64,000 nt of DNA from an uncultured Spirochaetota bacterium (GTDB lineage Bacteria; Spirochaetota; Spirochaetia; SZUA-6; Fen-1364), in assembly GCA_963745235.1 (NCBI GenBank), contig CAVUXE010000053.1:32001-96000 (forward strand), written 5' to 3'. The position numbers and the translations under genes were made by a program. The notes beneath the pieces are model-generated. The model had not been told where the DNA came from, did no database searches, and saw only the letters and a program-made list of their open reading frames with translations. This document shows, piece by piece, positions 1,816-22,500 of the stretch. How positions within the stretch are numbered: the stretch's first letter is position 1; the number at the start of each line of letters is the position of its first letter.

Positions 1816-1901
1816 CGCTTCTTTACAACGCGCGAACTTGGAGAGCACCTGGATGCAGCTATCGGCGGAAAACGGCAAGCATCCGAGGGGCGAAAAAACA
1901 C

Positions 1902-1930
1902 TTGCAGTAATAACTAAACAAATGTATAGT
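1902..1930 (+). promoter_or_regulatory. Sigma70-type promoter with overlapping near-palindromic operator; probable leaderless start
   Basis: TTGCAG-17bp-TATAGT with ATG 7 nt later and no RBS; ACTAAACAAATGTATAGT (1913-1930) is 14/18 self-complementary. Confidence 0.6.
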
Positions 1931-1937
1931 ACCTGCC

Positions 1938-3273: not shown

Positions 3274-3319
3274 CCGCTGGCGCCCGCGGCGATTGTCACG
3301 CTATTTCTGTGACATTACA

Positions 3320-6300: not shown

Positions 6301-7592
6301 TGCCCGCCGATGTCCAGGATGGATTGGACCCCGGGGAGGAACTCCGATGCGGCCGCCTGGTGCGCGACGGTCTCCACCTCTCCATCATCGAGACGGAACG
6401 CCTCCCTGACCAGGGCTTCCCCGTACCCCGTGGAACACGCGCGGGAGACCCAGGCGCCAGGGGGAATGGCGCGAAGCACCTCGGTGACCATTGCTGTGGC
6501 GACTCCCAGAGGATCCCCGCCGTTGCCCCGGTACGCTGACCACGCAATGGCCCCCTTGGCATCGATCACGACCGCCTTGGTGGTCGTCGAGCCTGCATCC
6601 AGCCCGAAGAACAGAGGTCCGCGCGCCCCCGCAATCTCCGTCCTCAGCGCGCGGGCTTTCCCGTGCCGGTCACGGAACGCCGCAAGCTCGCTCCCGTCCC
6701 GGAACAGCGGGCGCATGCGCTGCACCTCGGGCTCCCTCTCACCGCACAGTCCGCGCACACGGTCCCGAAGCTCCATGAGGCCAACGACGTTCTCTTTCTC
6801 CGAGGCAAGCGCGGCCCCCATGGCCACGAAGAGCTCGGCGCGAGCGGGGGTTCGAACGTGCTCGGGAGCCAGGCCGAGAGTCTTCACGAAGAGCTTCCTC
6901 GTTTCGGGAAGGAAATGCAGCGGACCGCCGAGGAAGGCGACCCGGCCGCGGATGGGCTTCCCGCAGGCGAGCCCCGAGATCGTCTGGTTCACCACCGCCT
7001 GCAGCACGCTGGCCGCGATGTCCTCCCGGCGCGCGCCCTCGTTGATGAGGGGTTGCACGTCGGACTTTGCGAACACTCCACAACGGGCGGCAATGGGGTA
7101 GATGGTCGTATGGGCCCGGGCAAGCTCGTTGAGCCCCGCGGCGTCGGTCTGCAGGAGGCTCGCCATCTGGTCGATGAACGCCCCGGTGCCCCCCGCGCAC
7201 GTGCCATTCATGCGCTGCTCCAGGCCGCCCGTGAAATACGTGATCTTGGCGTCCTCTCCGCCCAGCTCGATCGCGACATCCGTGTCCGGCAGAAATCGGG
7301 AGACCGCGCGCGTGCCGGCGATCACCTCCTGCACAAAGGGGAGATCGAGCCATCGGGAGACCGAGAGGCCGCCGGAGCCGGTGATTGCCACGCTGAGTGA
7401 CTGCCCCGGGGCCGCCCGGCAAAGCTCATCATGGGCAGCCTCCACGATCTCGATCAACGCGCCCCGGATGTCGGCGTGGTGACGCTCGTAGGTGCTGAAG
7501 ACAAGCGCGTCACTGGCGTCCAGGACCGCAAGCTTGACCGTCGTTGAGCCGATGTCGATGCCGGCGTGAAGCGTCCCGTTGGCCGTGCTCAC
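3320..7592 (-). CDS. Fused acyl-CoA dehydratase activase (2x BadF/BadG/BcrA/BcrD ATPase + DUF2229 + dehydratase-like domain), PlsAR/Ger-like; frameshift near 5285
   Basis: First ATPase [29 protein letters not shown]; second ATPase [27 protein letters not shown]; then [31 protein letters not shown] and QPFACLPNH; about 1420 aa once joined. Confidence 0.85.
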
Positions 7593-8036: not shown

Positions 8037-8902
8037 ATGTGCGATCACTGCATGAAACACGGAGCCGGGGGCAAGTGGTATCTCAACGCGAAAAGCTACT
8101 CGGAAGAGGTCGCGAGCAAGTACAATCTCCGCGAGTTCCTGCTGGAGCAGTACAAGAACTTCGAGCAGATCTCCGTGCGCAAGGTAGCCGGCTTCAGCCC
8201 GGTGGGCAACGACCATCTTTTCAGAATGCCCATCATCGGAAGGATCGTGCGACGGACCAAGGGCTCCTGCACAGCACCCGGCCGCCCAGGAACCCCTTTC
8301 GCCCGGAAGGGCACATCGGCCAGGTGGTCCCCCTGGAGGATGCGGTGGCCATTCTGGAAACCTGCGCAGCGGAGCCCATCATCGAGAAGAACTGCATGTG
8401 CCGCTACATGACGCGCGGTGAGAAGGAGGCCTGCTGCATCAACTTCGGCGTCATGTCGGAGATCATCGACAAGCTGCCCCGGTTCATCCCGGAGAAAGAG
8501 AAGTACCACCTGAGCCGGGAAGAGGCCGTTCGCAGGTTCACGGAGCACAACCAGAAGGGCTACATCGGGACCATCTGGTACGGCCCGTACCCGTACATCA
8601 ATAACCTGTGCTCCTGCAAGAGCCCCGAATGTGCGGGCATCCGGCCGCGCATGGACTTCGGCATCATGTCCATCCACAAGGCGGAATACGTTGCCGATAT
8701 CCATGACACCCTTTGCCGTGGATGTCTCCAGTGCGTGCAGCGCTGCCCGTTCAAGGCAATCGATGGAGACAGGAAGACCGGCAGGCCCCGCGTCAACCAG
8801 GAGAAGTGCTTCGGCTGCGGAGTTTGCCGCCACGCCTGCGACACGCGTGCCCTGTTCCTTGTCCCGCGCGCCAGCCGCGCGGCGGTTGCCGGCAGGTACT
8901 GA
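8037..8902 (+). CDS. Cys-rich 4Fe-4S dicluster domain protein; frameshift near 8260
   Basis: N-terminal MCDHCMKHGAGGKWYLN; central CMCR..CC and CSC...C; C-terminal CRGCLQCVQRCP and CFGCGVCRHAC. Confidence 0.8.
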
Positions 8903-8907
8903 CCGGC

Positions 8908-9171
8908 ATGCTCCGAAGGACACGAATCAGCATCGACTATTCCCTGTGCGGGGACGGCCGGGGCGTGGACCCGCGGGTCTGCTGCCTCTGCCTGCGCGCC
9001 TGCGAACCCGCCGTTTTCCTGCTCCATCAAACCATCGGAGCCCTCCAGCCTGATCCGCTGGACCCACAGACCTGGCGCGTCACCCCGCTGTGGCAGTCCC
9101 TGTGCACCGGCTGCATGAAGTGCGTGCTATCCTGTCCCCCGGGTGCCATCAGGGTGAGACATTCCGCATGA
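8908..9171 (+). CDS. Small ferredoxin-like protein
   Basis: MLRRTRISIDYSLC..CCLCLRAC..CTGCMKCVLSCP; ATGA overlap with the next gene. Confidence 0.75.
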   Translation: MLRRTRISIDYSLCGDGRGVDPRVCCLCLRACEPAVFLLHQTIGALQPDPLDPQTWRVTPLWQSLCTGCMKCVLSCPPGAIRVRHSA

Positions 9172-10223
9172 GCGACCGCGCGGCATCGCCGCAAAAATAC
9201 CTGGTCATGGGCGGCGCGGGAATGCTCGGGTACGAGATCGTGCGCCAGCTCCTGGATCGCGGCAAAGACGTTCGCGTGCTGGACCTCCAGCCGCTTGCTG
9301 ACAGTCGACCCGAGTCAATAGTCGGCGACATCCGTGATCCTCGGGCCGTCGAGCGGGCCTGTGAAGGCATGGACGTGGTGATCCAGACCGCGGCCTCTGT
9401 CTGGAACGTGCGCACCCCGCGAAGCCTCTACGACCAGGTGAACGTTGGCGGGAACCGGCTCGTCATCGACTCCTGCCTGCGCCTGGGCGTGCCGCGTCTT
9501 GTCTACACCAGCTCCATGGACGTCGTCGTTGACGGGAGAAAGCCGATCAGGGATGGCGATGAATCCCTTCCCTATCCGGCACGGATGCCGAAGGACGCGT
9601 ACAGCAGGTCAAAGATCGTGGCCGAGCAAATGGTGCTGGCGGCCAATGGCCGGCAGCTTTGCACGTGCGTGCTTCGGCCGGTGGGGATGTACGGGCCGCG
9701 GGACAAGTACCACCTGGGCAACATCATCGCCATGGCGCGCAAGGGTGTGTCTCTCCGTCTGGGCAACGGGTCAGCCCGGTTCAGTCATGCCTATTCGGAG
9801 AATGTGGCGCACGCCCACCTCCTTGCCGCAGAGCGCCTGCAGCCGGGCGGACCGGTGTGCGGGCAGTGCTATTTCATCTGCGATCACTACCCGGCGGAGA
9901 ACCTCTTCGATTTCATGGAGCCGTTTCTGCGGGCGCTGGATCTGCCCGTTCCGCGCCGTTCCATCCCCTATCGGCTGGCCTACGCGCTTGCCGCGCTTGC
10001 CGAGGTGGTTGCCCCGCATTCGAACTTCAACCGCTTCGCGGTCATTCAGACCTGCGTGGATCATACCTTCGTGGACACAAAGGCGGCCCATGAGCTGGGT
10101 TACCGTCCCATCGTGTCCCGCGAAGAGGCGTTTCGAAGGTCCGTGAGGTGGCTGCGGGACCCCGGCGCGGCCCCGGCTCCTATTCCAGGTTCGCGTGACG
10201 CTCGAACATCTTCTGCTCGCTGA
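9168..10223 (+). CDS. 3-beta-hydroxysteroid dehydrogenase/isomerase-like extended SDR
   Basis: GGAGMLG, VYTSSMDVV, DESLPYP, YSRSK, LRPVGMYGPRD and ENVAHAHLLA. Confidence 0.85.
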   Translation: MSDRAASPQKYLVMGGAGMLGYEIVRQLLDRGKDVRVLDLQPLADSRPESIVGDIRDPRAVERACEGMDVVIQTAASVWNVRTPRSLYDQVNVGGNRLVIDSCLRLGVPRLVYTSSMDVVVDGRKPIRDGDESLPYPARMPKDAYSRSKIVAEQMVLAANGRQLCTCVLRPVGMYGPRDKYHLGNIIAMARKGVSLRLGNGSARFSHAYSENVAHAHLLAAERLQPGGPVCGQCYFICDHYPAENLFDFMEPFLRALDLPVPRRSIPYRLAYALAALAEVVAPHSNFNRFAVIQTCVDHTFVDTKAAHELGYRPIVSREEAFRRSVRWLRDPGAAPAPIPGSRDARTSSAR

Positions 10224-10740
10224 CGCCTGTTTCTTCCATCAGGAGCAGGACGCAGGAATCCAGCAGAATCCCGAGAGCCTGCTCGAACAGCGTCGCCATG
10301 GGCTGAGCAGAGTGAGAGCCGCTGACCGCGGCGGCTTTCGGAGAAGGGGCGGGTATTCGCACCACGGTGCCGGCTATTTTCCCGAGAGGGGACCCTGGGT
10401 CAATGGTCAAAAGGGCAACCGCGCCGCCGCGCTTTCTGGCCTGCTCCGCAACGGCAACCAGGCTGGACGTGCTCCCTGAGCCCGAGCCCACCACCAGGAT
10501 TTCTCCCGGCGTCAGCGCCGGCGTGGTGGCATCTCCGACAACGTATGCCGGGATTCGCATGTGCATGAGGCGCATCGCAAAACCGCGCATGGCAAGGCCG
10601 GACCTTCCAGCGCCGGCAACAAACACCCCGCTTGCCGCTCGAATGGCCGTGGCGAGACGGCCCACTTCCGCCGCGTCGACCTGGGAGATGACGGAACGGA
10701 TTTCCTCAACCGCGGTGAACCGGATCTGCTCGTAGCTCAT
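10180..10740 (-). CDS. hxlB: 6-phospho-3-hexuloisomerase (SIS domain)
   Basis: VAGAGRSG..FAMRLMH..VGDATTP..GSGSGST..QPMATLFEQ..RHANLE. Confidence 0.93.
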   Translation of the reverse strand: MSYEQIRFTAVEEIRSVISQVDAAEVGRLATAIRAASGVFVAGAGRSGLAMRGFAMRLMHMRIPAYVVGDATTPALTPGEILVVGSGSGSTSSLVAVAEQARKRGGAVALLTIDPGSPLGKIAGTVVRIPAPSPKAAAVSGSHSAQPMATLFEQALGILLDSCVLLLMEETGVSEQKMFERHANLE

Positions 10741-11599
10741 GTTTCCTCACACGATAGGTGACCCCCACGCGCGGCATCACGCAGCGCACGGGTCCGCCCA
10801 GGCGGGCAATCTTTTCTGCCGCCGTCTGCGGGTCGATTGTGTTGAAGTCGAAGAGACCCCAATGATGGCAGAACAGAAGGCCTATGCCGGCACTGCGGCA
10901 AAGCTGGATGGCCTCCTCCAGGTGGAAGTTCCCGAGCACTCCCCGTGATGTCAGGTATTCGCTCCTGCCGTTGACCGGCAAGAGCGCCACGTCGATTGCG
11001 CTGGCGCGCAGTGTTTCTTCCAGTCCTTCGTAAGGGACGCAGTCACCCGAATGATAGATACGGACGCCGCCAAGGGTCACGATGTACCCGAGGTGCAGGA
11101 GCTCCCCGCGCTCGTTGCGCGCAAGCTGCTCGTGAGCGGCCGCGACCGCATCCACCTGCACACCATCTTCGGGCTCCCGGGTTTCTCCGGCATCCATGGC
11201 GAGAAGTCGCGGCTCCGGGATGCCGAGAGAGACGGCACGCGCGGTCTCCGCGCGCGGAACGATGAACGCGCACGAGGGATTGGCTCGTGCGATGGCGGGA
11301 AGCGTCCCCGGGTCCATGTGATCGGAGTGGCGATGCGTGCACAACACCAGGTCGATTCCGCGCGCTGCCGTCGGCTCCAGGGGGGACGGCATCATGCGGG
11401 TGTGGGGGAGCTCCTTGCCCCGGTACTTTTCAGCAAGGGAGTCCGAAAGGTATGGATCGATGAGGAGGAGATGACCGCCCCCGCGCAGGGCAAAGCCGGC
11501 CTGGCCGAGCCAGTTCAGGCAGACCCCCGAGGGCGCGCGCTGCAGGGTCAGCTCCTGGGCAAGGGTTGACGCGAAGGGATGCTCTTCCATCCGGACCAT
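10706..11599 (-). CDS. MBL-fold metallo-hydrolase (UlaG/lactonase-like)
   Basis: WLGQAGF, IDPYLSDSL, THRHSDHMD, YHSGDC, LPVNG and HHWGLF. Confidence 0.85.
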   Translation of the reverse strand: MVRMEEHPFASTLAQELTLQRAPSGVCLNWLGQAGFALRGGGHLLLIDPYLSDSLAEKYRGKELPHTRMMPSPLEPTAARGIDLVLCTHRHSDHMDPGTLPAIARANPSCAFIVPRAETARAVSLGIPEPRLLAMDAGETREPEDGVQVDAVAAAHEQLARNERGELLHLGYIVTLGGVRIYHSGDCVPYEGLEETLRASAIDVALLPVNGRSEYLTSRGVLGNFHLEEAIQLCRSAGIGLLFCHHWGLFDFNTIDPQTAAEKIARLGGPVRCVMPRVGVTYRVRKHELRADPVHRG

Positions 11600-11624
11600 G
11601 AGACAAAGTATACCTTTAAACACC
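11600..11624. promoter_or_regulatory. Candidate bidirectional promoter with overlapping -10 elements
   Basis: Only 25 bp separate the divergent ATGs. Minus-strand TATACT (11612-11607) is 7 nt from its ATG; plus-strand TACCTT (11611-11616) is 8 nt from its ATG; no RBS on either side. Confidence 0.5.
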
Positions 11625-12251
11625 ATGAAGCTGCAGCTTGCCCTGGACATGGATTCCCTTGCGGCGGCGCGCGCCCTGCTGGAGAAGACCGCGGACCTCG
11701 TCGACATCGCGGAAGTGGGAACCCCGCTGGTGCTGCGGGAGGGGGCCGCGGCCATCCGAGCGCTGAAGAAAGAGTACCCGCACCTCCTGGTCCTCGCGGA
11801 CTTCAAGATCATGGATGCCGGCGCGGAGGAGGCGGCAATCGCCTTCGACGCCGGGGCAGACATTGTCACGGTGCTCGCCGCCGCGGAGACTGTCACGATC
11901 CAGCGGGCCTGCGACATCGCCGCCGACGCCGGCCGCGAAGTCATGGCGGACCTCATTGCCGTCGCGCACCCCGCGCGGCGCGCCGTGGAGATCGCATCCG
12001 CGGGGGTGACCTACCTGTGCTGTCACACGGCTTTCGACATGCAGCTCTCGGGGGCAGACCCCGCGCGTGAGCTCTCCGAGGTGCGCGCCGCGCTCCCCGG
12101 CGCGCGGATCGCCGCGGCAGGGGGCATCACGCCGCAGAGAATCGGCCTGCTGAAGCCGGCCGGGCCGGAAATCATCATTGTGGGCGGCTACGTCACGCGA
12201 GCAACCGACCCGCGCGCCGCGATCCAGGAGGTCAGCGCCGCAATGAGCTGA
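11625..12251 (+). CDS. hxlA: 3-hexulose-6-phosphate synthase
   Basis: MKLQLALD, EVGTP, ADFKIMDAG, AGADIVTVL, CHTAFD (HPS-like rather than KGPDC HRxRD) and AGGI; hxlB lies nearby. Confidence 0.85.
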   Translation: MKLQLALDMDSLAAARALLEKTADLVDIAEVGTPLVLREGAAAIRALKKEYPHLLVLADFKIMDAGAEEAAIAFDAGADIVTVLAAAETVTIQRACDIAADAGREVMADLIAVAHPARRAVEIASAGVTYLCCHTAFDMQLSGADPARELSEVRAALPGARIAAAGGITPQRIGLLKPAGPEIIIVGGYVTRATDPRAAIQEVSAAMS

Positions 12252-12320
12252 TGCGGCCGGCCCTTTTGTCCATTTCTGGCGCGCTTTCGCGGTGGTATGA
12301 TTGGCCACCGAGGTGTGGAC

Positions 12321-13487
12321 ATGGCAAGAGAAACGTTGACCTCCCGTGAGCGGGTTCTGAGAGCCCTCGACCACACGACGCCGGATCGCGTGCCCATAGA
12401 TCTGGGCGGTTTCCAGACCGGCATCCACAGGAAAGCCTACGAGGCGCTGCTGCGGCACCTCGGCATCACGGAAGAGATCACCATCCTGGACCCGGTCCAG
12501 CAGCTTGCCCGGCCGTCAGAGCAGGTCCTGCAGCGCTTCCACGTGGACACGCGCTACCTCGGCGCCCATGGTCCGGACAGCTTTGCCGGCGGGATCAGGA
12601 AAAACACGCGCGGGGGGAAACAGTGGCACGACCTTCGCGACGAGTTTGGCGTGGTCTGGTCCATGCCGGAGGACCAGATGCTGTTCATGGACATTTCGCA
12701 TCATCCCCTGGCGGAAGCGACCGTCCAGGACATCGCCCGGTATCCTTTTCCCACGGGCAACGATCCCACCCGGTTCACGGGTGTCCGCGAGCAGGCCCTC
12801 ACCTTGCGGGGCTCCTCGGATGCGGCAATCTGCACGGCAATCGGCGGCGTGGTTTATGAAACCTGCTGGTACATGAGGGGCCTGGAGCGCTGGTTCATGG
12901 ACATGCTGGAGAACCCGGGCTTCTGCGAGGCCCTCCTTGACCGGGTCCTCGAGTACTGGCTGGGCTTCTATGACGGCTTCCTGGGAGAGGTCGGTGACCT
13001 GGTTGATGTCGTGATGATCGGGGATGATCTTGCCGGGCAGAACGGGCCCCTTTTCTCCCCCGCTTTCTACCGAAAGATCGTAAAGCCGCGGCAGAAAGCG
13101 CTCGTCCAGCACATCAAGACGCTGACACGGGCCCGGATCTGGTACCACACCTGCGGCTCGTGCGTCGAATATATTCCGGACCTGATCGACAACGGCGCTG
13201 ACATCCTGAACCCCGTGCAGATCAGCGCAAAAGACATGGACCCCCGGAGCCTGAAGCAGAGGTTCGGGGCGCGCATCACGTTCTGGGGCGGCGGTATCGA
13301 CGCGCAGCGCGTCCTGCCCTTTGGCTCGCCGCGGGACGTGAGAGACGAGGTTCATCGCAACCTGGACATCTTCAAGACCGGCGGGGGCTACGTCTTCAAC
13401 AACGTCCATAACATCCAGCACGGAGTCCCCGTGGAGAACATCGTGGCGCTTTTCGACGCGGCCTACGAGTTCGGCTTCTCCTCTTAA
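12321..13487 (+). CDS. Uroporphyrinogen decarboxylase/MtaA-CmuA family protein
   Basis: SRERVLRAL.H..PDRVP.D, DEFGVVW, RGLERW, GDDLAGQ, YHTCGS, LNPVQ, FWGGGIDAQ and HNIQ; GAGGTG RBS. Confidence 0.85.
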   Translation: MARETLTSRERVLRALDHTTPDRVPIDLGGFQTGIHRKAYEALLRHLGITEEITILDPVQQLARPSEQVLQRFHVDTRYLGAHGPDSFAGGIRKNTRGGKQWHDLRDEFGVVWSMPEDQMLFMDISHHPLAEATVQDIARYPFPTGNDPTRFTGVREQALTLRGSSDAAICTAIGGVVYETCWYMRGLERWFMDMLENPGFCEALLDRVLEYWLGFYDGFLGEVGDLVDVVMIGDDLAGQNGPLFSPAFYRKIVKPRQKALVQHIKTLTRARIWYHTCGSCVEYIPDLIDNGADILNPVQISAKDMDPRSLKQRFGARITFWGGGIDAQRVLPFGSPRDVRDEVHRNLDIFKTGGGYVFNNVHNIQHGVPVENIVALFDAAYEFGFSS

Positions 13488-13798
13488 TCCATGTGGAAGA
13501 CTTCCGCGAGCTGGACCTGGACGGGTGAATTGTCCGGGTTGGTCTCCATGATGTCCGCCATGTATTTCCACCACTTCTTCACGATCGGGGTTTCGGGCAG
13601 GAGAGCCGACGTGTTGTGGTCCATGAGCTTCTGGAATGCAAAGAGCGTGAGGGTGGACGCGTCGAGGTAGATGGAGTAGTCGGACACGCCAGCCGCCTCC
13701 AGCTCCGTGAGAAGCTCGGGCCAGATCTCGTCATGGCGGCGCCGGTACTCGGCTTCGAATCCCTTCTTGAGCTTCATTGTGAATGCGGCACGTGTCAT
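13484..13798 (-). CDS. rhaM: L-rhamnose mutarotase
   Basis: EYRRRHDEIWPEL..GVSDYSIYLD..KWWKYMADIMETNPDNSP..EVFHMD; AGGAG RBS. Confidence 0.93.
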   Translation of the reverse strand: MTRAAFTMKLKKGFEAEYRRRHDEIWPELLTELEAAGVSDYSIYLDASTLTLFAFQKLMDHNTSALLPETPIVKKWWKYMADIMETNPDNSPVQVQLAEVFHMD

Positions 13799-13821
13799 GG
13801 GCACTCCTGTTGCAGATCCTT

Positions 13822-14721
13822 CTACTGGTGGACGAAGGCGCTCCACCGCGACGGGGCTATGCCTGTCTTCTTGCGGAACAACCGGGAAAAATAGTACTGG
13901 TCATCGAATCCGAGGCGAAAGGCCACTTCCTTGATCGGCAGCGAGCCGGCCTCCAGGAGCTCCTTCGCCTTCCTGATCTTGATGCTGATGAAATACTGGT
14001 AGGGGGTCATGGCGGTGTAGGACTTGAACACCGCGTTGAGGTGGGACGTGCTCACCCCGAGGGTTCCCCCAATGCGGACCAGGTTCACTTCGCGGTCGAT
14101 GTTTTCTTCCATCAGGAACTTTGCCTTCTCAACGAGCCCCTCGGAGCTGGAATGCTGCACTGTTTTCCGTTCGTGGGCAAGCACCTCGGCAATCAGGGTG
14201 AGCACGAGCGAGCTTGCCCTGATCTGGTACAGGGGCTGCTGGTTTCTCACGAGCTCGAAGATCCTTCCATAGATGTCGAGAAGGCTGTTCTGAAGTCCCA
14301 CTTCGTAGGTGGGCTTCCGGGGCGAGAGGAAACCCTGATCCCGCAGCGTGTCCGCGTGGGGGCCCTTGAATCCGACCCAGTACTCGGTCCACCCGACGTC
14401 GAAGTCCGGCTTGTAATGATGACGGATTCCCGGGAAGATCATCATGACCGTTCCCGGGACGACCACGTGCGTCTTCTGGCTCGTTTCGAACACGCCGCGG
14501 CCCTTCGTGATGTAGACGATCTGGTATTCGACGAGGGTCCGCCCGACCGCCACCGACTTGAACGCCTGCGGGTGGCCTTCCTTGTTGGGCGGGTACCGTG
14601 TATGCGGAGGCACCTCGCTGTACCCGGCGTCGGTGCACACCAGCTGCCATTTCTCGTCTTCCTCACTGCAGGTGAGGTAGCGAAAGAAGGCGTTTCGGCC
14701 GTTCGGCTCGATCTGGCCCAT
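13822..14721 (-). CDS. AraC family transcriptional regulator
   Basis: Cupin N-terminus (GRTLVEYQIVYITKG, WTEYWVGF) and C-terminal IKEVAFRLGFDDQYYFSRLFRKKTGIAP. Confidence 0.92.
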   Translation of the reverse strand: MGQIEPNGRNAFFRYLTCSEEDEKWQLVCTDAGYSEVPPHTRYPPNKEGHPQAFKSVAVGRTLVEYQIVYITKGRGVFETSQKTHVVVPGTVMMIFPGIRHHYKPDFDVGWTEYWVGFKGPHADTLRDQGFLSPRKPTYEVGLQNSLLDIYGRIFELVRNQQPLYQIRASSLVLTLIAEVLAHERKTVQHSSSEGLVEKAKFLMEENIDREVNLVRIGGTLGVSTSHLNAVFKSYTAMTPYQYFISIKIRKAKELLEAGSLPIKEVAFRLGFDDQYYFSRLFRKKTGIAPSRWSAFVHQ

Positions 14722-14750
14722 CAAGCTCCTTATACCTCTTTTTCCTTTCC

Positions 14751-14812
14751 CGGACAAGTTTTGTCCATCCGCGGATTTTTGTTCCATCCCGTGGACTGAA
14801 TAGTCCATTCCG
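14751..14812. promoter_or_regulatory. Three ~20-21 bp tandem repeats (GGAC-N6/7-GTCCAT-like); probable AraC binding sites
   Basis: cggacaagttttgtccatccg / cggatttttgttccatcccg / tggactgaatagtccattccg, between the divergent araC and isomerase genes. Confidence 0.65.
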
Positions 14813-14845
14813 AGCAGCGGAGTCCCCGTTGGATACTGGAGCCAG

Positions 14846-16279
14846 ATGCACGAGCGCGGGGCACGAGGCAGGATCGGGCTTTTTGGCATTGGCCTGGACA
14901 CGTATTGGCCGCAGTTCAAAGGGCTGAAGGAACGCCTGCAGGGATACCAGGAGTACATCGCGGGACGCATCTCATCGCTTCACGTCGAGGTGGTTGACGC
15001 CGGGCTGGTCGACTCACCGGACAAGGCCCGGGCCGCGGCGCGGCTTTTCACCGAGCGCAACGTGGAGGCGATCTTCCTCTACATCTCGACATACGCCCTG
15101 TCGCATACCGTGCTTCCCGTGGCGCAGCAGGCCGGCGTCCCGATCATCGTCTTGAACCTCCAGCCGGTGCCCGCCATCGACTACGAGAAGTTCAACTCCC
15201 TCGGTGACCGCGGCGTCATGACAGGAGAGTGGCTCGCTCACTGCCAGGCCTGCTGCGCTCCTGAAATCGCCAACGTGTTCAACACCTGCGGGATCGACTA
15301 CAACCTCGTGACCGGGTGGCTGAAAGAGGAGTCCGCGTGGGAGCAGATCACCTCCTGGGTGGACGCCATCGCGGTCCGCGCGGAGATCCGCGACGCGCGG
15401 GTGGGCATCCTGGGGCATTACTACGAAGGGATGCTGGACGTCTATACCGATGTGACGCGTCTTGCCTCGGTATTCGGCACCCACTTCGAGCTCATCGAAA
15501 TGGACACGCTCAAGAGTCATCGCGACCGCGTGGGACCAGTGGCAATCCGCGACAAGCTCACCCAGTTCCAGAAGGAGTTCCGCGTGTCACCGGAATGCGA
15601 GACCTCCGAGCTTGAACGCGCCGCCAGGACCTCGTGCGCGCTGGACTCCCTGGTTGCAGACTCCCGCCTGGGCGCAATGGCATATTATTATGAGGGAGCC
15701 GGGGGAAACGATCATGAGGACATCGTGACGTCCGTCATCGCGGGCAACACGCTGCTCACGTCCCACAACGTCCCGATCGCGGGCGAATGCGAGGTCAAGA
15801 ATGTCATGGCGATGAAGATCATGGATTGCTTTGGAGCCGGGGGTTCCTTCTCCGAGCTCTACGCCGTAGACTTCAACGACGACGTGGTGCTCTGGGGCCA
15901 TGACGGGCCCGCTCATTCGGCAATCGCAGAGGGGCCCGTGGGCCTTGTGCCGCTGCCGGTGTACCATGGGAAGCCGGGCAAGGGTCTGTCCATCCAGATG
16001 AGCGTGCGTCACGGGCCGGTGACTCTCCTTTCGGTGGTGCAGGGAAGGGGCGGTACGACATTCCTTCTCACGGCGGAAGGAGAGGCGGTTCCCGGTCCGA
16101 CCCTGCAGATCGGGAATACCAACAGCAGGTACAGGTTCCCGCTGTCGGCCCGCGCGTTCACGGACCGCTGGTCGAGGGCGGGGCCGGCGCACCACTGCGC
16201 CATCGGCGTCGGGCACCTCGCCGACAGGGTTGACAAGCTCGCGCATCTCCTCAAAATCGAGTGTCTGAAGGTCTGTTGA
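14846..16279 (+). CDS. L-fucose/L-arabinose isomerase family protein
   Basis: GLDTYWPQF, YEGMLD, AGECEVKN, SFSELYA.DF, GHDGPAH and GPAHHCAIGVGH. Confidence 0.85.
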   Translation: MHERGARGRIGLFGIGLDTYWPQFKGLKERLQGYQEYIAGRISSLHVEVVDAGLVDSPDKARAAARLFTERNVEAIFLYISTYALSHTVLPVAQQAGVPIIVLNLQPVPAIDYEKFNSLGDRGVMTGEWLAHCQACCAPEIANVFNTCGIDYNLVTGWLKEESAWEQITSWVDAIAVRAEIRDARVGILGHYYEGMLDVYTDVTRLASVFGTHFELIEMDTLKSHRDRVGPVAIRDKLTQFQKEFRVSPECETSELERAARTSCALDSLVADSRLGAMAYYYEGAGGNDHEDIVTSVIAGNTLLTSHNVPIAGECEVKNVMAMKIMDCFGAGGSFSELYAVDFNDDVVLWGHDGPAHSAIAEGPVGLVPLPVYHGKPGKGLSIQMSVRHGPVTLLSVVQGRGGTTFLLTAEGEAVPGPTLQIGNTNSRYRFPLSARAFTDRWSRAGPAHHCAIGVGHLADRVDKLAHLLKIECLKVC

Positions 16280-16294
16280 CAGGAGTCCATCAAA

Positions 16295-17798
16295 GTGGCT
16301 GACCGCATCCTTGAGCTTGCGCACATCACAAAGACCTTTCCGGGAGTGAAAGCCCTGGACGACGTGCATTTCGATCTGCTGCGCGGGGAGATCCATGCGC
16401 TCATCGGGGAGAACGGGGCCGGCAAGTCCACCCTCATCAAGGTGATCACCGGCGTCTACCAGCCGGACTCCGGCCAGATACTCCTGGACGGGGCACCGGT
16501 GGAGATCCACAGCACCGCTGATTCGCAGAAGCTCGGGATCGCCGCTATTTATCAGCACGTCACCTGCTACCCGGACCTGTCCGTCACGGAGAACATCTTC
16601 ATCGGCCATGAGAAAATCCAGCCCCTGACCCGAAAGATCGACTGGAAGGACCTTCACCAGAGGGCGGGAGAGCTGCTCGCGCAACTGGATGCGGATTTCG
16701 ATCCCCGTGCGCCCATGGGGAACCTTTCCGTGGCGCAGCAGCAGATCGTTGAGATCGCCAAAGCGCTTTCAACGAACGCGCGCATCATCATCATGGACGA
16801 ACCGACTGCGCCTCTGACTGCCCGCGAGAGCGAGGACCTTTACCGGACCACGGAAGGGCTGCGCGACAAGGGAGTCTCCATCATCTTCATCTCCCACCGC
16901 ATGGAGGACATGTACCGCCTTGCCGAGCCGGGTGACCGTGTTCCGGGATGCCCGCTACGTGGGCACGTGGAACCTGAACGAGGTGAAGCGGGAAGAGCTC
17001 ATCATGGCCATGGTGGGCCGCGAGATCACGCAGTTCTTCCCGAAACGCAAGGTCGCCATCGGAGAGGAGATCTTCCGCGTGGAAGGACTCTCCCGCACCG
17101 GGTACTTCAAGGACGTGTCGTTTTCCGTTCGCAAGGGGGAAATCCTCGCCATGACGGGCCTGATCGGGGCTGGCCGCACCGAGGTGTGTGAATCCATCTA
17201 CGGTGTCACGCACCCCGACAAGGGACGCATCATCCTGAACGGCAGGGAGCTGCACATCGCCAATCCCGCCCAGGCAATCGAGCTGGGCATCGGCTACCTT
17301 CCGGAGGACCGTCTGCGCCAGGGCCTCGTGCTGGAGTGGGAGCTTTCCAAGAACGTGACGCTTCCGACCCTGAAACAGTTCGCCACGCTGGGCTGGCTCC
17401 ATCCGAAGAAGGAAAACGAGGTCACCAAGGAGCTCGCGGAAAAGCTGGAGGTGCGCGCGGGCAGCGTCTTCGACCTGGCCGCCACGCTGTCTGGCGGGAA
17501 CCAGCAGAAGATCATCGTCGCCAAGCTTCTTGCCGGCACCATGAAGGTCATCATCCTTGATGAGCCGACCAAGGGCGTGGACGTGGGAGCCAAGACCGCC
17601 ATCTTCAATATCATGAACGATCTTGCAGAGATGGGGTATGGAATCATCATGGTCTCCTCGGAGATGGCGGAGGTGCTGGGCATGAGCGACAGGATTGTCG
17701 TCATGCGGGACGGGCGGGTCGCCGCCACCATGGACACGGCCGGCAGCACCCAGGAGCAGATCCTCCGCGCCGCCATGCCGGAGACGGTGCACGCATGA
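16295..17798 (+). CDS. Sugar ABC transporter ATP-binding protein (CUT2, RhaT-like); frameshift near 16925
   Basis: GENGAGKST, IMDEPT, GLIGAGRTE, LSGGNQQK and DEPTKGVDVGAK. Confidence 0.92.
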
Positions 17799-18781
17799 GG
17801 CGGGCCGCTTCGTTCACGGAGAGCTTCCGAGAGCTGGGTCTCCTGGTCTTCATCGTCGTGATCTGCGCGATTTTTCAGGTCCGCAACCGCAACTTCCTCA
17901 CCCTTGAGAACATCCAGGACCTCCTGACGAACACGGCCATCCTGAGCATCATGTCCGTCGGCATGATGATGGTCATCCTGACTCGAGGAATCGATCTCTC
18001 CGTCGGGGCCGTCGTCGCCCTGGCGGGCATGGTCAGCGCGCTCACGGTGCAGTACTTCCGGGGCATCTCCCCGGTCGTCTCGATCCTGGAGGCGGTTGCC
18101 GTGGGGACCGCGGCGGGCGTGCTCATCGGGCTCCTCGTGGCCCGCTTCAACGTCTTGCCCATCATTGCGACCCTCGGCACCATGAACATCATCCGCGGCT
18201 TCACCTACGTGATCAGCGGGGGCGCCTGGGTGAGCTCGTACCAGATGTCACGGGGATTCAAGGAGATCGCCACGGGAGAGGTGCTGGGGGTGAGCAACCT
18301 CATCATCGTTGCCGTGGTCATCAACGTGCTGTTCTTCTATTTCATCAACCACATGCGCACCGGGCGCCAGATCTATGCCGTGGGCTCGAACCCCGAGGCG
18401 GCGGACATTTCGGGCATTCCGCGCCGGCGGATCGTCTGGCTGGTGTACACCCTCATGGGCGCCTTGTCGGGGCTCGGTGGCGTGATCTGGGTGGCCAAGT
18501 TCGCCTCCGCGCAAAGCGACACGGCAACGGGGTTCGAGCTCTCCGTCATCGCCGCCACGGTGCTGGGCGGCGTGAGCATAGCGGGAGGAAGCGGGAAGGT
18601 GTCGGGGCTGATCCTGGGGACAATTCTCCTGGGCATCCTGAACAACGCGCTGCCCCTCATCAACGTTTCCCCGTTCTGGCAGCAGGCCATCCAGGGAATC
18701 GTGATCCTGGCGGCCGTGCTCACGAACGTGCTGGTCAAGAGGAACAGCCAGAGATTTGCGCTGCGAAGGCGCGCCATTTAG
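17795..18781 (+). CDS. Sugar ABC transporter permease
   Basis: GIDLSVG, TGRQIYAVGSNPEAA and ELSVIAATVLGGVSI.GG.G. Confidence 0.92.
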   Translation: MRRAASFTESFRELGLLVFIVVICAIFQVRNRNFLTLENIQDLLTNTAILSIMSVGMMMVILTRGIDLSVGAVVALAGMVSALTVQYFRGISPVVSILEAVAVGTAAGVLIGLLVARFNVLPIIATLGTMNIIRGFTYVISGGAWVSSYQMSRGFKEIATGEVLGVSNLIIVAVVINVLFFYFINHMRTGRQIYAVGSNPEAADISGIPRRRIVWLVYTLMGALSGLGGVIWVAKFASAQSDTATGFELSVIAATVLGGVSIAGGSGKVSGLILGTILLGILNNALPLINVSPFWQQAIQGIVILAAVLTNVLVKRNSQRFALRRRAI

Positions 18782-18791
18782 GGAGTTGCAG

Positions 18792-19832
18792 GTGGAGAGG
18801 TCCATTCGGGTCGAGAGACTGTGGAGCTGGCGCACGTTCTTCCTGCAGTGGGAATGGCTCCTGGTGCTGATCTTCATCGCCGTCAACGTCATCAACAGCA
18901 CCCTCTCACCGTACTACTTCACGGCTGACACGTTCCTCCAGACCCCCATGACGTTCCTGGACATGGCCTTCCTCGTGCTCCCCATGACCATGGTCATCAT
19001 CCTCGGGAACATCGATATCTCCGTCGGCTCCACCGTCGCGCTTTCCGCGGTGGTCATGGCCGTGGCCTACAACGCGGGCCTGCCCATGGTGCCGGCCGTG
19101 CTCCTGTGCCTCCTGGTGGCCAGCGCGTGCGGCTTCATCAACGGCCTCCTCATGACGAGGTTCAAGGAGCTGTCCTCCGTCATCGTGACCCTGGCCACCA
19201 TGATCATCTACCGCGGCATAGCCTACGTGATCCTGCAGGACCAGGCGGCAGGGAAGTTCCCGAAATGGTACTCCTCACTCGGCTGGGGGTCGGTGGGCAA
19301 GGTGCCCATCATCCTCATCGTGTTCGCCATCTGCGCGGTGATTTTCGGGCTGCTCCTGCACAAGACGAGCTTCGGGCGAAAGATCTACGGCATGGGCAGC
19401 AACCTGACCGCCTCCCGCTACTCGGGGGTCAAGACTGACTCCATCATCATGATCGTGAGCGTGCTGACCGGTCTCATGGCCGGGTTCACGGCTCTCTTCC
19501 TCACCTCGCGCATGGGGAGCACCCGGCCGAACGTTGCCCAGGGCTACGAGCTTTCCGTGATCGCAATGGTGGTCCTGGGCGGCGTGAGCACCTCCGGGGG
19601 CAAGGGGAGGATCGCGGGGCCGCTTCTTGCAATTTTCATCATCGGCTTCCTGAACTACGGGCTCGGGTTGGTGAACGTCCAGGCGCAGGTGCTCTTGATA
19701 ATCGTGGGGTTCCTTCTGATTCTTTCGGTTCTCGTTCTCAACGTCAGGTTTCGTGGACGGTACCAGCGTTCGGTGCCCTCGGCGACGAAAAAGGTCGCCG
19801 CTCAGGAGCATCCGAACGACAACACTCCATAA
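18792..19832 (+). CDS. Sugar ABC transporter permease
   Basis: NIDISVG, FGRKIYGMGSN..ASRYSG and ELSVIAMVVLGGVS; GTG start after GGGAG is approximate. Confidence 0.9.
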   Translation: MERSIRVERLWSWRTFFLQWEWLLVLIFIAVNVINSTLSPYYFTADTFLQTPMTFLDMAFLVLPMTMVIILGNIDISVGSTVALSAVVMAVAYNAGLPMVPAVLLCLLVASACGFINGLLMTRFKELSSVIVTLATMIIYRGIAYVILQDQAAGKFPKWYSSLGWGSVGKVPIILIVFAICAVIFGLLLHKTSFGRKIYGMGSNLTASRYSGVKTDSIIMIVSVLTGLMAGFTALFLTSRMGSTRPNVAQGYELSVIAMVVLGGVSTSGGKGRIAGPLLAIFIIGFLNYGLGLVNVQAQVLLIIVGFLLILSVLVLNVRFRGRYQRSVPSATKKVAAQEHPNDNTP

Positions 19833-19845
19833 GGAGGAGGACGCT

Positions 19846-20898
19846 ATGCGGAAGTTTCTTATCAGGGCTGCCGTGATCACAGCGATCATGGCAATTGCAC
19901 TTCCCGTCGCGCTTTTCGCGGGCGGCAGCGGGGAGAAGCAGGGCGGCACCATGTCGGCCGGGGGAGCAGCGAAGTACGCCATCGTGTTCAAGAACACGGG
20001 GAACCCCTACGGCGACAGGCAGATGGGCGGATTCAAGGCAGGCATCGAGGAGCAGGGATTCCAGGCAATCCTGCGCGCTCCCGATCAGCCAACGGCCGAG
20101 GCGCAGATCCAGATCCTGGAGCAGCTCATTTCCCAGAAGGTGGCGGCAATCTGCATCGTCGGCAACGACAAGGATGCCCTGCAGCCGGTCCTCCAGAAGG
20201 CCATGAGCCAGGGCATCAAGGTGTTCTCCCTGGACTCCGGGGTCAACCCGCAGAGCCGGCTGGTCCATGTGAACCAGGCGGACTCTGAAAAGATCGGGAC
20301 GACGCTCATCGAAGCCGCCTTTGACATGTCCGGCGGAAGCGGCGATATCGCCATCCTTTCGGCGACCAGCCAGGCGACAAACCAGAACCTCTGGATCGAC
20401 TTCATGAAGAAGACGCTCGCGCTGCCGAAGTACGCGAACCTTCACCTGGTGAAGATCGCTTACGGTGACGACATCCGCGACAAGTCGGTGTCCGAGGCGG
20501 AGGGCCTTCTGCAGTCGTTCCCGAACCTGAAGGTCATCATAGCCCCCACCACGGTCGGAATTGCCGCAGCGGGCAAGGTTCTCACGGACAAGGGTCTTGG
20601 CGGCAAGGTGTTCCTCACGGGCTTGGGTTTGCCCTCTGAGATGGCCACCTACATCGAGAACGGCGTCTGCCCCTACATGTTCCTGTGGAACCCCATCGAC
20701 GTCGGGTACCTCGGAGCGTATACCGCCACGGCGCTCGTGAGCGGCAAGATCACGGGCAAGGTTGGTGAGAAGTTCACCGCCGGACGCCTCGGTGAAAAGG
20801 TCATCACGCAGGCACCGGACGGCGGGACCGAAGTCCTGCTCGGGCCCCCGTTCAAGTTCGACAAGGCGAACATCGAGGACTGGAAGAAGGTTTATTAG
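19846..20898 (+). CDS. rhaS: Rhamnose-type ABC transporter substrate-binding protein
   Basis: KNTGNPY, ILSATSQATNQN.WI, YGDD..DKS..EA.GL, IIAPTTVG, TGLGLPSEM and LWNPID.GY; spirochaete-type LFAGG signal; strong RBS. Confidence 0.8.
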   Translation: MRKFLIRAAVITAIMAIALPVALFAGGSGEKQGGTMSAGGAAKYAIVFKNTGNPYGDRQMGGFKAGIEEQGFQAILRAPDQPTAEAQIQILEQLISQKVAAICIVGNDKDALQPVLQKAMSQGIKVFSLDSGVNPQSRLVHVNQADSEKIGTTLIEAAFDMSGGSGDIAILSATSQATNQNLWIDFMKKTLALPKYANLHLVKIAYGDDIRDKSVSEAEGLLQSFPNLKVIIAPTTVGIAAAGKVLTDKGLGGKVFLTGLGLPSEMATYIENGVCPYMFLWNPIDVGYLGAYTATALVSGKITGKVGEKFTAGRLGEKVITQAPDGGTEVLLGPPFKFDKANIEDWKKVY

Positions 20899-20925: not shown

Positions 20926-22395
20926 TCAGGGGCTGTCCGAAAGGGCAGCCCCTTTCTCACGGAGGACCGCCCCGGCGCCCGGCGGCGCCGGCAGGATTTT
21001 CCCCGGATTGAGAATGCCCAATGGGTCCAGGGCGTCCTTTATTGTCCGCATCATGGCGACCGCCGGGCCGCCAAGGTTTCGCTGCACGAAATCGCGCTTC
21101 GAGACCCCAATGCCATGCTCGCCGGAGATCAGCCCTCCGCGCTTGATAGCGTCTGTGTAGATCTCATCCTTGACCTGTCGGTGAAGCGCCTCCCACCCGT
21201 GGATCTCCTCCCCGAGCACGCCATCAGCCAGTCTTCGCCTCATGGTGTGAGAGTGCACGTTTCCATCAGCGGCATGCCCGTATGTGGGGATGGGGATCCC
21301 CAGCCGTTCTTCGAGGGAGGACACGAACTCCACGTGCGCAGCTATCTCTGAGCGGGGGACGCATATGTCGAGGACTTCGACGGAGGCCGGCTTGATGGCC
21401 TCGTAGATCATGCTCCGAAGCTCGAGGATGTCCGCCTGGTGCTCGGATGTCTCCGCCACCAAGACATCCAGGGCGCCCTCCTCCTCCACGATGGCCATGA
21501 ACCTTTGCGCCTGGGAGAGGACTTCCTCCTCGACTGCTCCGTCCAGGATGACCATGAGGGAAGCTGAGCCGACCGCGGCCGGCCACGGCTTTTTCAGCAG
21601 CCGCTCTGAACAGCGGATCACGGCGTGGGGAATGAACTCCACTGCCGCGGGAATTATCCCCGCGCGCAGAAGGGAAGGGACGGCCTGGATGGCCTGTCGG
21701 ACGTTCTCGAAAGGAGCAATCAGCGTCTTGAGACATCCGGGCTTCGGGACAAGGGACAGGGTCACCCGCGTGATGACCCCCAGGGTTCCTTCCGAGCCGA
21801 TCATGAGGTCGAGCAGGTGATACCCGGTGCTGGATTTCACGGTCTTTCCGCCCAGCTCCACGATGGACCCGTCGGAGAGCACCACCTGCAGGCCGATCAC
21901 GAACCGCTTGATGGTCCCGTATTTGACTGCCCGCGACCCACCCGCATTCGCGGAAACCAGCCCGCCCACGTGCGCGCCCTCGTCTCCGGGATGGGGCGGG
22001 AAGAAGAGGCCCATTGCCTCCACGGCTTCATCGAGCCGGCGAAGAGGCATCCCGGCTTCCACCGTGATGGTGGAATTGGCCTGGTCAGCATCGACCTGGC
22101 GATTGAGACGCTCCATGGAAAGAACGACGCCGCCCTCCGCCGCCACGCATGCCCCCGAAAGACCGGTCCCGCCTCCTCGGACCGTGAGCGGGACCCTGTA
22201 CTTTCCGCAAAGTACGGTGATTGACGCCACCTCCTCCGCCGAGGCCGGTCGGACAACCGCCAGCGGGGCTCGCGCGAGCTCCTCCAGGGCCGACTCATCC
22301 CGGGAATAAGGGACCAGGGCGGATGGCTCGGTGATGACGTTCTCCGCTCCAACCATCCCGCGCGCCTCCGCCAGCCATGCTTCGTGATTTGACAT
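20926..22395 (-). CDS. FAD-linked oxidase (GlcD/D-lactate dehydrogenase-like)
   Basis: RGGGTGLSG, ANAGG.RAVKYG, GSEGTLGVIT, GHAADGNVH, SGEHGIG and DPLGILNPGK. Confidence 0.9.
   Translation of the reverse strand: MSNHEAWLAEARGMVGAENVITEPSALVPYSRDESALEELARAPLAVVRPASAEEVASITVLCGKYRVPLTVRGGGTGLSGACVAAEGGVVLSMERLNRQVDADQANSTITVEAGMPLRRLDEAVEAMGLFFPPHPGDEGAHVGGLVSANAGGSRAVKYGTIKRFVIGLQVVLSDGSIVELGGKTVKSSTGYHLLDLMIGSEGTLGVITRVTLSLVPKPGCLKTLIAPFENVRQAIQAVPSLLRAGIIPAAVEFIPHAVIRCSERLLKKPWPAAVGSASLMVILDGAVEEEVLSQAQRFMAIVEEEGALDVLVAETSEHQADILELRSMIYEAIKPASVEVLDICVPRSEIAAHVEFVSSLEERLGIPIPTYGHAADGNVHSHTMRRRLADGVLGEEIHGWEALHRQVKDEIYTDAIKRGGLISGEHGIGVSKRDFVQRNLGGPAVAMMRTIKDALDPLGILNPGKILPAPPGAGAVLREKGAALSDSP
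20929..20958 (+). terminator. Intrinsic terminator of the ABC operon
   Basis: GGGGCTGTCC-GAAA-GGGCAGCCCC hairpin followed by TTTCTC. Confidence 0.75.
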
Positions 22396-22457
22396 CTCTG
22401 CGGCCCTTTTTTTGATCATATTAACTGAGGGGACGACAATGCAAGGGAAACAACCAT

Positions 22458-22482
22458 GGAACCAGGCGCGCGGTACTAGTCT
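22458..22482 (+). promoter_or_regulatory. Candidate ECF sigma promoter
   Basis: GGAAC-16bp-GTCT ending 18 nt upstream of the ATG at 22501. Confidence 0.45.
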
Positions 22483-22500
22483 CCCGAGAGGAAAGAGAAA

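Follow-up and report, generated by a model that had tools for sequence, protein, structure and literature searches.

A UroD-fold protein of L-rhamnose utilisation loci is a candidate corrinoid-dependent demethylase of methylated rhamnose

Introduction

Mosses, algae and bacteria supply the anoxic habitats of peat, sediments and guts with methylated rhamnose, fucose and other sugars; such methylated sugars block ordinary sugar catabolism. In the literature found, and within the available text of its sources, the only documented route of sugar demethylation is the oxygen-dependent cytochrome P450 route of marine Bacteroidota. Here we analyse a locus of an uncultured Spirochaetota bacterium in which a gene for a protein of the uroporphyrinogen decarboxylase (UroD) fold, called U below together with its product, stands among genes for rhamnose-type uptake. 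The stretch of DNA analysed, the window, comprises 64,000 nucleotides (G000:C53:32001-96000; contig CAVUXE010000053.1 of assembly GCA_963745235.1) from a genome of 5.85 Mb in 104 contigs that is 85.7% complete. The analysis bears on the proposal that U may be a corrinoid-dependent O-demethylase for methylated rhamnose whose partners are encoded elsewhere in the genome.

Results

Gene content of the locus

Gene identities were assigned by scanning the window proteins against Pfam and NCBIfam profiles, with the family cut-offs applied. Along the forward strand, hxlB and a gene for a metallo-beta-lactamase (MBL)-fold hydrolase lie on the minus strand, hxlA and U follow on the plus strand, rhaM and an araC-family gene are again on the minus strand, and a sugar isomerase gene, the ATPase and two permeases of an ATP-binding cassette (ABC) transporter and its substrate-binding protein complete the series on the plus strand. 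With four transcription directions and two divergent junctions, the locus is not a single operon. A first-pass annotation of the window had named all of these genes, and the profile scans return each of them in the same place or close to it. Its remark that rhaA, rhaB, rhaD and a corrinoid protein are absent is true of the window; RhaA and two corrinoid proteins are encoded elsewhere in the genome.

U extends over 12297..13487 on the plus strand, with a likely start at the ATG at 12321, and matches the UroD profile PF01208 with 80.7 bits. Beyond it on the minus strand lie rhaM, for L-rhamnose mutarotase (13484..13846; TIGR02625 118.3 bits, cut-off 99.6; PF05336, E = 4e-31), and the gene for the AraC-family regulator (13822..14970; PF12833, PF00165 and PF02311), which is divergent from the isomerase and ABC genes. 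The coordinates of the regulator are those of the longest frame, its real start being probably more internal, and its counterparts in L009, L010 and L011, the three closest spirochaete loci of the survey described below, are 77-81% identical. The isomerase (14846..16279, plus strand) belongs to an uncharacterised subfamily: PF11762 scores 23.1 bits, under its cut-off of 25, the L-arabinose isomerase model NF002795 scores 38 bits against a cut-off of 622, and the SftI model 33.6 against 700. Profile comparison thus places it in the FucI/AraA superfamily only, the AraA/FucI equivalog cut-off being missed, and a sequence search against solved structures returned no relative.

The genes of the importer follow, all on the plus strand. 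The sugar ABC ATPase (16295..17798) has two ABC domains, its halves matching positions 1-211 and 210-505 of models of about 500 residues. A single-base insertion near 16923, evident from the alignment with L009, L010 and L011, divides it into two frames (16295-17191 and 16920-17798); the extra base may reflect an error of assembly, or the importer may have been inactivated recently. Permease 1 (17795..18781; PF02653, E = 2e-42) and permease 2 (18756..19832; PF02653, E = 8e-37) precede a RhaS-type rhamnose ABC substrate-binding protein (19753..20898) that scores 362.9 bits to TIGR02637, over the cut-off of 342.25. Binding protein, two-domain ATPase and two permeases together make up an importer of the RhaSTPQ type, with the ATPase frame broken.

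U in rhamnose loci of many phyla

A scan of species genomes returned 493 relatives of U; the 80 best loci were retained, each with flanks of up to 10 kb. Neighbours were sought by tblastn with the window proteins and, in an unbiased way, by clustering every frame found there and annotating the cluster representatives with Pfam. Their record titles assign the loci to Spirochaetota, Planctomycetota, Bacteroidota, Chloroflexota, Latescibacterota, Hydrogenedentota, Verrucomicrobiota, Aminicenantes, Calditrichota and Actinomycetota. Orthologs of U at 60-85% identity number thousands of metagenomic proteins from many phyla. They form a single tight cluster, in that a library clustered at 50% identity holds one representative at 71% and the rest at 47% or less, and in the ESM Atlas the matches to U are clusters labelled UroD only.

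Recurrent neighbours of U are the rhamnose-proton symporter RhaT, the rhamnosidase family GH106, RhaA, AraC regulators and class II aldolases; FGGY kinases, GH78, sulfatases and a phosphomutase also recur. In a tblastn recount, 50/80 loci had at least one of RhaT, GH106, RhaA, RhaM and GH78 in the 10 kb to either side of U. RhaT is present in 33; in 25 it lies no more than 300 bp from U and shares its strand in every case, being upstream in 21 and downstream in 4. GH106 is near U in 24 loci, RhaA in 16, RhaM in 7 and GH78 in 4, and the isomerase seen in the window is near U in 7. These counts make U a conserved component of loci for L-rhamnose utilisation, and that it belongs to rhamnose utilisation is very likely indeed. 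The grouping of a UroD/MtaA-like protein with rhamnose-type uptake genes, noticed at first in this window, thus recurs across phyla. Of the genes whose co-occurrence with this clade the first-pass annotation had suggested checking, tblastn finds rhaM in 7/80 loci, the binding protein in 5/80 and hxlA/hxlB in 1/80.

U was also considered as a substitute for RhaA or RhaM. This was ruled out: because it co-occurs with both in the same loci (RhaA 16/80, RhaM 7/80), it replaces neither.

RhaA of the host genome is encoded on contig C15 (L121, G000:C15:222000-241999, positions 8079-12938 for the neighbourhood), between a RhaEW-type fusion of Aldolase_II and short-chain dehydrogenase/reductase (SDR) domains (659 residues) and a hexokinase-family kinase (524 residues). 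The kinase, which is not an FGGY-type RhaB, may be a non-orthologous rhamnulokinase. With RhaA, the RhaEW-type fusion and the kinase on C15, the core rhamnose pathway is thus present outside the window. An HxlR-type regulator is encoded 2.5 kb away on the same contig.

Fold and putative metal site of U

By profile score U belongs neither to the HemE model TIGR01464 (19.5 bits, cut-off 302.95) nor to the MtaA/CmuA model TIGR01463 (48.8 bits, cut-off 235.4), and it scores 32.4 bits against a cut-off of 400 to the MtaA equivalog NF040654. As a single sequence searched against solved structures it gave weak UroD matches only, the best with E = 2.2e-4; its best profile match was MtaA (E = 2.3e-10). 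The AlphaFold model of U has a pLDDT of 96.2, and the nearest folds returned by Foldseek are MtaA of Methanosarcina mazei (4ay7/4ay8; E = 9.1e-15, TM 0.61-0.75), then UroDs and MetE.

In an alignment of 78 sequences, comprising U orthologs and paralogs, H284 is present in 78/78 and H371 in 77/78, and position 286 holds Cys in 68 sequences and Asp in the other 10; many Asp, Gln, Asn and Lys residues are conserved as well. Profile alignment to 4ay7 sets H284-x-C286 on the H-x-C of MtaA and H371 on the position of its third-ligand Cys. The motif of the MtaA/CmuA family is a zinc triad, H-x-C ... C, and from the H284/C286/H371 pattern U may likewise have a metal site, placed at the mouth of the barrel.

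The host genome has 27 matches to PF01208, one of which, at 391.8 bits on contig C33, is probably the true HemE. A scan of 83 of the 168 frames around the UroD paralogs of this genome returned sugar ABC transporters, FGGY kinases, xylose-isomerase-like barrels and GFO/IDH/MocA oxidoreductases; among these frames it found no corrinoid protein. In the genus (g1), many congeners have, besides U orthologs that score at least 538 bits to the family profile, a second UroD group at 475-508 bits, which may be a sister clade for another sugar.

Co-occurrence with a corrinoid carrier

The host genome encodes two free-standing corrinoid (B12-binding) proteins on contig C35, of 235 and 228 residues, with the domains PF02607 and PF02310. 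These carriers have the DxHxxG motif, and GDLHDIGKN is invariant in 17 orthologs. The second carrier gene adjoins that for methylenetetrahydrofolate reductase (MTHFR). The only RACo-type activase of the genome (PF14574, C15:59778-60519) is matched in two adjacent frames, with an apparent frameshift in the assembly. There are two Pterin_bind (PF00809) matches, of 410 residues with 272 bits and of 282 residues with 88 bits, either of which could be FolP. Formyltetrahydrofolate synthetase (FTHFS) is encoded as well. Acetyl-CoA synthase (PF03598) was not found in this genome, which is 86% complete.

Carrier and activase were counted in the U-bearing genomes of 50 of the 80 loci, with an even sample of 251 Planctomycetota, the phylum of genome G341, as the baseline. 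A carrier ortholog is present in 49/50 U-bearing genomes as against 74/251 sampled Planctomycetota, and RACo in 45/50 as against 90/251, of which 88 are over the family cut-off. The five U-bearing genomes in which RACo was not matched each have a short B12-binding_2 frame besides MetH, of 220-234 residues in four and of 354 residues in G329. Most U-bearing Planctomycetota, Chloroflexota, Bacteroidota and other genomes have carriers 46-59% identical to that of our spirochaete. U itself was detected in at least 2/251 Planctomycetota by a single-protein search at E = 1e-100 or better in which 7 candidates per genome were scored, a lower bound that is not used as a frequency.

U is the rhamnose-locus member of a large UroD-fold family that is tied to free-standing B12 carriers. 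Among the first 20 carrier-positive and the first 20 carrier-negative genomes in the list, the UroD-fold (A1-type) family, scored by a profile match of E = 1e-30 or better, is present in 13/20 and 0/20, respectively. Genomes that have it contain between 1 and 19 copies. Depending on the search, no more than 7 to 48 UroD candidates were scored per genome. The carrier gene is usually solitary and adjoins MTHFR in 5/30 carrier loci. Physical association of family members with the carrier is seen in several genomes. A 670-residue protein of the planctomycete G405 (L182, G405:C163:15500-20500, positions 1776-3788, minus strand) fuses B12-binding_2, B12-binding and URO-D domains and is encoded beside a PfkB-family sugar kinase. 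In G359 the genes run carrier-UroD-UroD-x-RACo, and in G558 and G320 a UroD gene directly adjoins the carrier. An apparently complete cluster in G416 (L184, G416:C1:1598500-1609500) contains RACo, the carrier, MTHFR with DUF5981, Pterin_bind, an amidohydrolase and DUF1638, then three UroD genes in tandem.

A predicted interface between U and the carrier

When U and carrier 1 were modelled together, both as alignments, the complex scored 0.83 (0.84, 0.83 and 0.83 in separate runs), compared with 0.00 for the best control. The mark applied to this score is reached by 116/157 solved complexes and by 2/215 mismatched pairs. The runs agreed in at least 92% of contacts, and partner pLDDT was at least 81. 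On the carrier, the modelled interface consists of the DxHxxG loop and the loops of the B12 face (residues 120-129, 173-176 and 202-206). On U it consists of residues 196-205, 247-254, 336-338 and 374-377, on either side of the conserved D244, Q248, D335, Q337 and H371. The model thus predicts, with a high score, that the B12-binding face of the carrier meets the conserved barrel mouth of U.

The RuMP genes beside U

Upstream of U lie two genes of the ribulose monophosphate (RuMP) pathway with an MBL gene between them. On the minus strand, hxlB (10180..10740) encodes a 6-phospho-3-hexuloisomerase with a SIS domain (TIGR03127 213.9 bits, cut-off 160), and the MBL-fold metallo-hydrolase gene spans 10706..~11596 (PF12706, E = 4.1e-22), with its start taken at the Met of MVRMEEH. 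On the plus strand, hxlA (11598..12251, likely start at the second ATG, 11625) encodes a 3-hexulose-6-phosphate synthase (TIGR03128 216.8 bits, cut-off 200) and gives the only match over cut-off in the whole genome. The MBL protein scores 39.6 bits to the UlaG model, whose cut-off is 306, and its homologs are labelled generic MBL or "UlaG" only; matches to the gene occur in 4/301 sampled genomes of the phylum. An ascorbate-type pathway, with a UlaG-like MBL protein and a UlaD-like HxlA, was considered and is ruled out by the RuMP cut-offs passed and the UlaG cut-off missed.

Conservation of this block with U is narrow. By tblastn, hxlA and hxlB each occur in 1/80 U loci, both in the close spirochaete locus L011, and the MBL gene occurs in 2/80, being present in L010 without hxlA or hxlB. 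Across 61 related genomes, this one included, hxlA is over cut-off in 15. The hxlB-MBL-hxlA series adjoins U only in the congeners G611 and G615, and G611 appears, from identical identity values, to be the genome of L011. Six relatives have a top-scoring U ortholog (at least 538 bits to the family profile): hxlA is adjacent in G611 and G615 and on another contig in G646, and no hxlA over cut-off was found in G606 (97% complete), G607 (84%) or G626 (89%). G620 carries the triad on a contig other than that of its U-like gene, and in other families of the order hxlA and hxlB form a simple pair that lacks both the MBL gene and a nearby U ortholog. The two loci whose U is most similar, L009 and L010, have no hxl genes, and in them U directly follows the SDR or the MBL gene. 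The block therefore looks like a genus-level insertion beside U that lies outside the conserved system. A scan of 9900-15100 for promoters and terminators returned sites no more frequent than in shuffled sequence.

The locus is flanked on the hxlB side by a gene for an SDR of the 3-beta-HSD type, an NAD-dependent dehydrogenase or epimerase (9090..10223, plus strand; PF01073, E = 2.6e-65). This gene is also upstream of U in L009, L010 and L011, that is, in 3/80 loci (tblastn, 74-78% identity). Further upstream, the minus strand encodes a CoA-enzyme activase of the BcrAD/BadFG type with DUF2229 (5079-7592), and a 4Fe-4S dicluster protein is encoded at 8039-8902; both fit an anaerobic lifestyle. 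At the other end, an FAD-linked oxidase of the GlcD/D-lactate dehydrogenase type (20926-22551) is convergent on the end of the ABC operon and is found in 0/80 related loci.

Discussion

The locus is best explained as a composite of two units: one for rhamnose-type uptake and early processing, which includes U, and the hxlB-MBL-hxlA unit. For the former, carrier co-occurrence, the fusions and clusters of the family, the structure alignment and the complex model make oxygen-independent demethylation of a methylated deoxysugar, as the first-pass annotation had proposed, the best-supported function. Dependence of U on a corrinoid is probable. Methyl-rhamnose as its substrate is a plausible choice whose chances we put slightly short of even, and the whole reading, in which U depends on a corrinoid to remove the O-methyl group of methylated rhamnose and has its partners encoded in other parts of the genome, we regard as evenly balanced.

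Under this proposal, an O-methylated 6-deoxyhexose, most likely O-methyl-L-rhamnose, would be imported, and U would position the methoxy oxygen on a metal at H284, C286 and H371. The methyl group would pass to cob(I)alamin on a carrier encoded on C35, the RACo-type activase encoded on C15 would maintain the carrier in reduced form, and a pterin-binding methyltransferase together with MTHFR would bring the methyl group into folate metabolism, via methyl-tetrahydrofolate towards formate or biosynthesis. The freed rhamnose would be processed by RhaM, RhaA, the kinase and the RhaEW-type enzyme, the last three of which are encoded on C15. In this manner, a single set of carrier, activase and folate-side enzyme would be shared by many UroD-fold paralogs, each specific to a sugar and encoded in a locus for it.

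Several observations weigh against the proposal. A tblastn search with the proteins of the host genome found no carrier and no RACo up to 10 kb from U in the 80 loci, so that use of the carrier by the U clade rests on co-occurrence and the model. An A1-type UroD gene is directly beside the carrier in only 2/35 carrier loci examined, and the RACo match is absent in 5/50 U-bearing genomes, including G341 with its chromosome record of 4.2 Mb. Co-occurrence is, moreover, confounded by ecology and kinship, as all are metagenome-assembled genomes of anaerobe type and the baseline comes from a single phylum. The complex score may reflect likeness only, because methyltransferase-carrier complexes have already been solved, and the third putative metal position is His in U, not the Cys of MtaA. 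As for the substrate, O-methyl-rhamnose has gene context as its sole basis, and in 29/80 loci, several of which are short contigs, neither a rhamnose-specific gene nor the c30 isomerase is near U. Finally, hxlA stops 69 bp short of the likely start of U, the two genes share a strand and the gap contains no terminator-like site, so that co-transcription of the two is locally possible.

Some of these points would suit a U that works without a corrinoid, as a metal-dependent isomerase, epimerase, decarboxylase or hydrolase on a UroD barrel acting on rhamnose or a derivative. The carrier is near U in none of the 80 loci, U sits directly behind the transporter gene as a first-step sugar enzyme would, its third metal position is His as in true UroDs, its 48.8 bits are far from the MtaA/CmuA cut-off of 235.4, and sugar binding would fit its many conserved Asp, Gln, Asn and Lys residues. 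Such an enzyme would, however, replace neither RhaA nor RhaM, which the same loci hold, and it would leave aside the strict tracking of the carrier by the family in 40 genomes (13/20 compared with 0/20), the fusions and clusters with carrier, RACo, MTHFR and Pterin_bind, the carrier in 49/50 U-bearing genomes, and a model that puts the carrier's B12 face on the conserved pocket of U (0.83 compared with 0.00); we consider it unlikely. Still less probable is a corrinoid-dependent U that demethylates not the sugar but methoxylated aromatics, such as methoxyflavonoids, freed by the GH106 and GH78 rhamnosidases. These families are indeed near U in 24/80 and 4/80 loci, and the characterised UroD-fold substrate:corrinoid methyltransferases known to us all act on aryl methyl ethers or halomethanes. 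Nonetheless, within 300 bp of U it is RhaT that is found (25/80) rather than GH106 (4/80) or GH78 (2/80), loci of the ABC type pair U with a binding protein, a mutarotase and a sugar isomerase, the paralogs in the host genome stand beside sugar ABC transporters, FGGY kinases and sugar isomerase-like genes, and the family member fused to the carrier adjoins a PfkB sugar kinase.

The RuMP genes invite a different account of the methyl carbon, which the first-pass annotation had favoured: U would demethylate a deoxysugar and release the C1 unit as formaldehyde, or via methylene-tetrahydrofolate, for HxlA and HxlB to fix into fructose 6-phosphate. Its attractions are the short gap between hxlA and U described above, the hxlB-MBL-hxlA-U order kept in G611, G615 and L011, the single copy of hxlA, and the usefulness of another C1 sink where acetyl-CoA synthase was not found in an 86%-complete genome. 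Corrinoid methyl transfer, however, leads to methyl-cobalamin and methyl-tetrahydrofolate and not to formaldehyde, and FTHFS and MTHFR give a folate route to formate. As the linkage between the hxl genes and U is 1/80 and limited to one genus, and corrinoid chemistry yields no formaldehyde, capture by RuMP is unsupported; G606, G607 and G626 have U but no hxlA over cut-off, G646 has hxlA on another contig, G620 separates the triad from its U-like gene, and hxlA-hxlB pairs of other families have no U nearby. Precedent exists in aerobic marine Bacteroidota, in which RuMP detoxifies formaldehyde after methyl-sugar demethylation according to the available text of PMC9400963, and we nevertheless judge this account highly improbable here. 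More likely than not, the block serves housekeeping or detoxification independently of the sugar locus, running RuMP in reverse from fructose 6-phosphate to ribulose 5-phosphate or removing stray formaldehyde, and its place beside U in this genus is a coincidence. The patchy distribution of hxlA (15/61 related genomes over cut-off), the hxlA-hxlB pairs that other families of the order carry apart from U, the different context of the G620 triad and an L010 that has the MBL gene and neither hxl gene all agree with it, whereas possible co-transcription of hxlA with U speaks against it and the MBL gene between the hxl genes is left unexplained. In the variant that the first-pass annotation gave as its alternative, in which HxlA and HxlB process a 3-hexulose intermediate of an unusual sugar, rhamnose would be unsuitable, since a 6-deoxyhexose should not yield a 6-phosphate hexulose.

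If U is a corrinoid-dependent O-demethylase of methylated rhamnose, the consequences reach beyond this locus. With the known route dependent on oxygen and the habitats anoxic, a family of B12-dependent sugar demethylases would close a gap in the anaerobic carbon cycle. Such a family would account for the many "uroporphyrinogen decarboxylase" genes in the genomes of anaerobes and imply an extra demand for cobamides in their communities. The boldest version is of a widespread and undescribed oxygen-free removal of sugar methyl ethers, in which a shared B12 carrier, activase and folate enzyme would serve dozens of UroD-fold methyltransferases, U being the O-methyl-rhamnose member in at least 10 phyla and, in this genus, being coupled to RuMP so that the methyl carbon enters hexose phosphates; we offer this version tentatively and doubt that it holds in full. 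The U clade is a good first target, as it is strongly conserved, has a clear genomic partner in rhamnose uptake and leaves few candidate substrates.

Literature on UroD-family genes in rhamnose loci, or on a corrinoid-dependent sugar demethylase, was not found in a search of sources other than subscription journals and supplements. Canonical L-rhamnose regulons comprise RhaSTPQ, RhaM, RhaA, RhaB and RhaD or RhaEW (Rodionova et al. 2013, PMC3870299, available text), and the terms uroporphyrinogen, methyltransferase and COG0407 have no match in the available text of that article. Our system resembles these regulons in its RhaS-type protein and RhaM, both over equivalog cut-offs, and in the RhaA and RhaEW-type fusion elsewhere in the genome; it differs in having U and the FucI/AraA-like isomerase in addition, and in that the kinase beside RhaA is of the hexokinase family and not FGGY. 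Marine Bacteroidota demethylate 6-O-methyl-D-galactose by a P450-dependent reaction with RuMP detoxification of the formaldehyde, as the available text of PMC9400963 and PMC6292453 describes, and the first-pass annotation, which had invoked this precedent, matches the former. Common to both cases are the demethylation of a methylated sugar before normal catabolism, which is the role proposed for U, and RuMP genes nearby. The P450 route, unlike ours, needs oxygen and releases formaldehyde, and our locus contains no P450, and its RuMP genes are not conserved with U.

HemE has the same fold as U, and the C-terminal F-N-x-x-H-x-I of U resembles the F-N-L-G-H-G-I of HemE; U, however, is found among sugar genes and not among haem genes. 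MtaA (4ay7/4ay8) is both the best structural and the best profile match, with the H-x-C aligned. The two differ in that identity is 19%, some 140 extra N-terminal residues of U lie beyond Pfam coverage and the third ligand position is His. Methyl transfer by U would probably run from substrate to cobalt, opposite to that of MtaA, and to our knowledge the hosts of U make no coenzyme M.

The corrinoid O-demethylases of anaerobes consist of a methyltransferase I, a corrinoid protein, a methyltransferase II and an activase, as in MtvABC of Moorella and the Odm and Vdm systems of Acetobacterium. CdmB of Acetobacterium (9rui) is a marginal match to U, with E = 2.2e-4 over the C-terminal 75 positions only. 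Unlike these systems, U has a context of sugar uptake and catabolism and not of aromatic ethers, its clade is never beside the carrier (0/80 loci), its hosts are not known to be acetogens, and acetyl-CoA synthase was not found in the host genome. The likeness lies in the components: U has a UroD-type barrel, the genome has a free DxHxxG carrier, a RACo-type activase, pterin-binding genes and MTHFR, relatives of U are found in complete clusters, and substrate-side paralogs are many, with 27 PF01208 matches in this genome.

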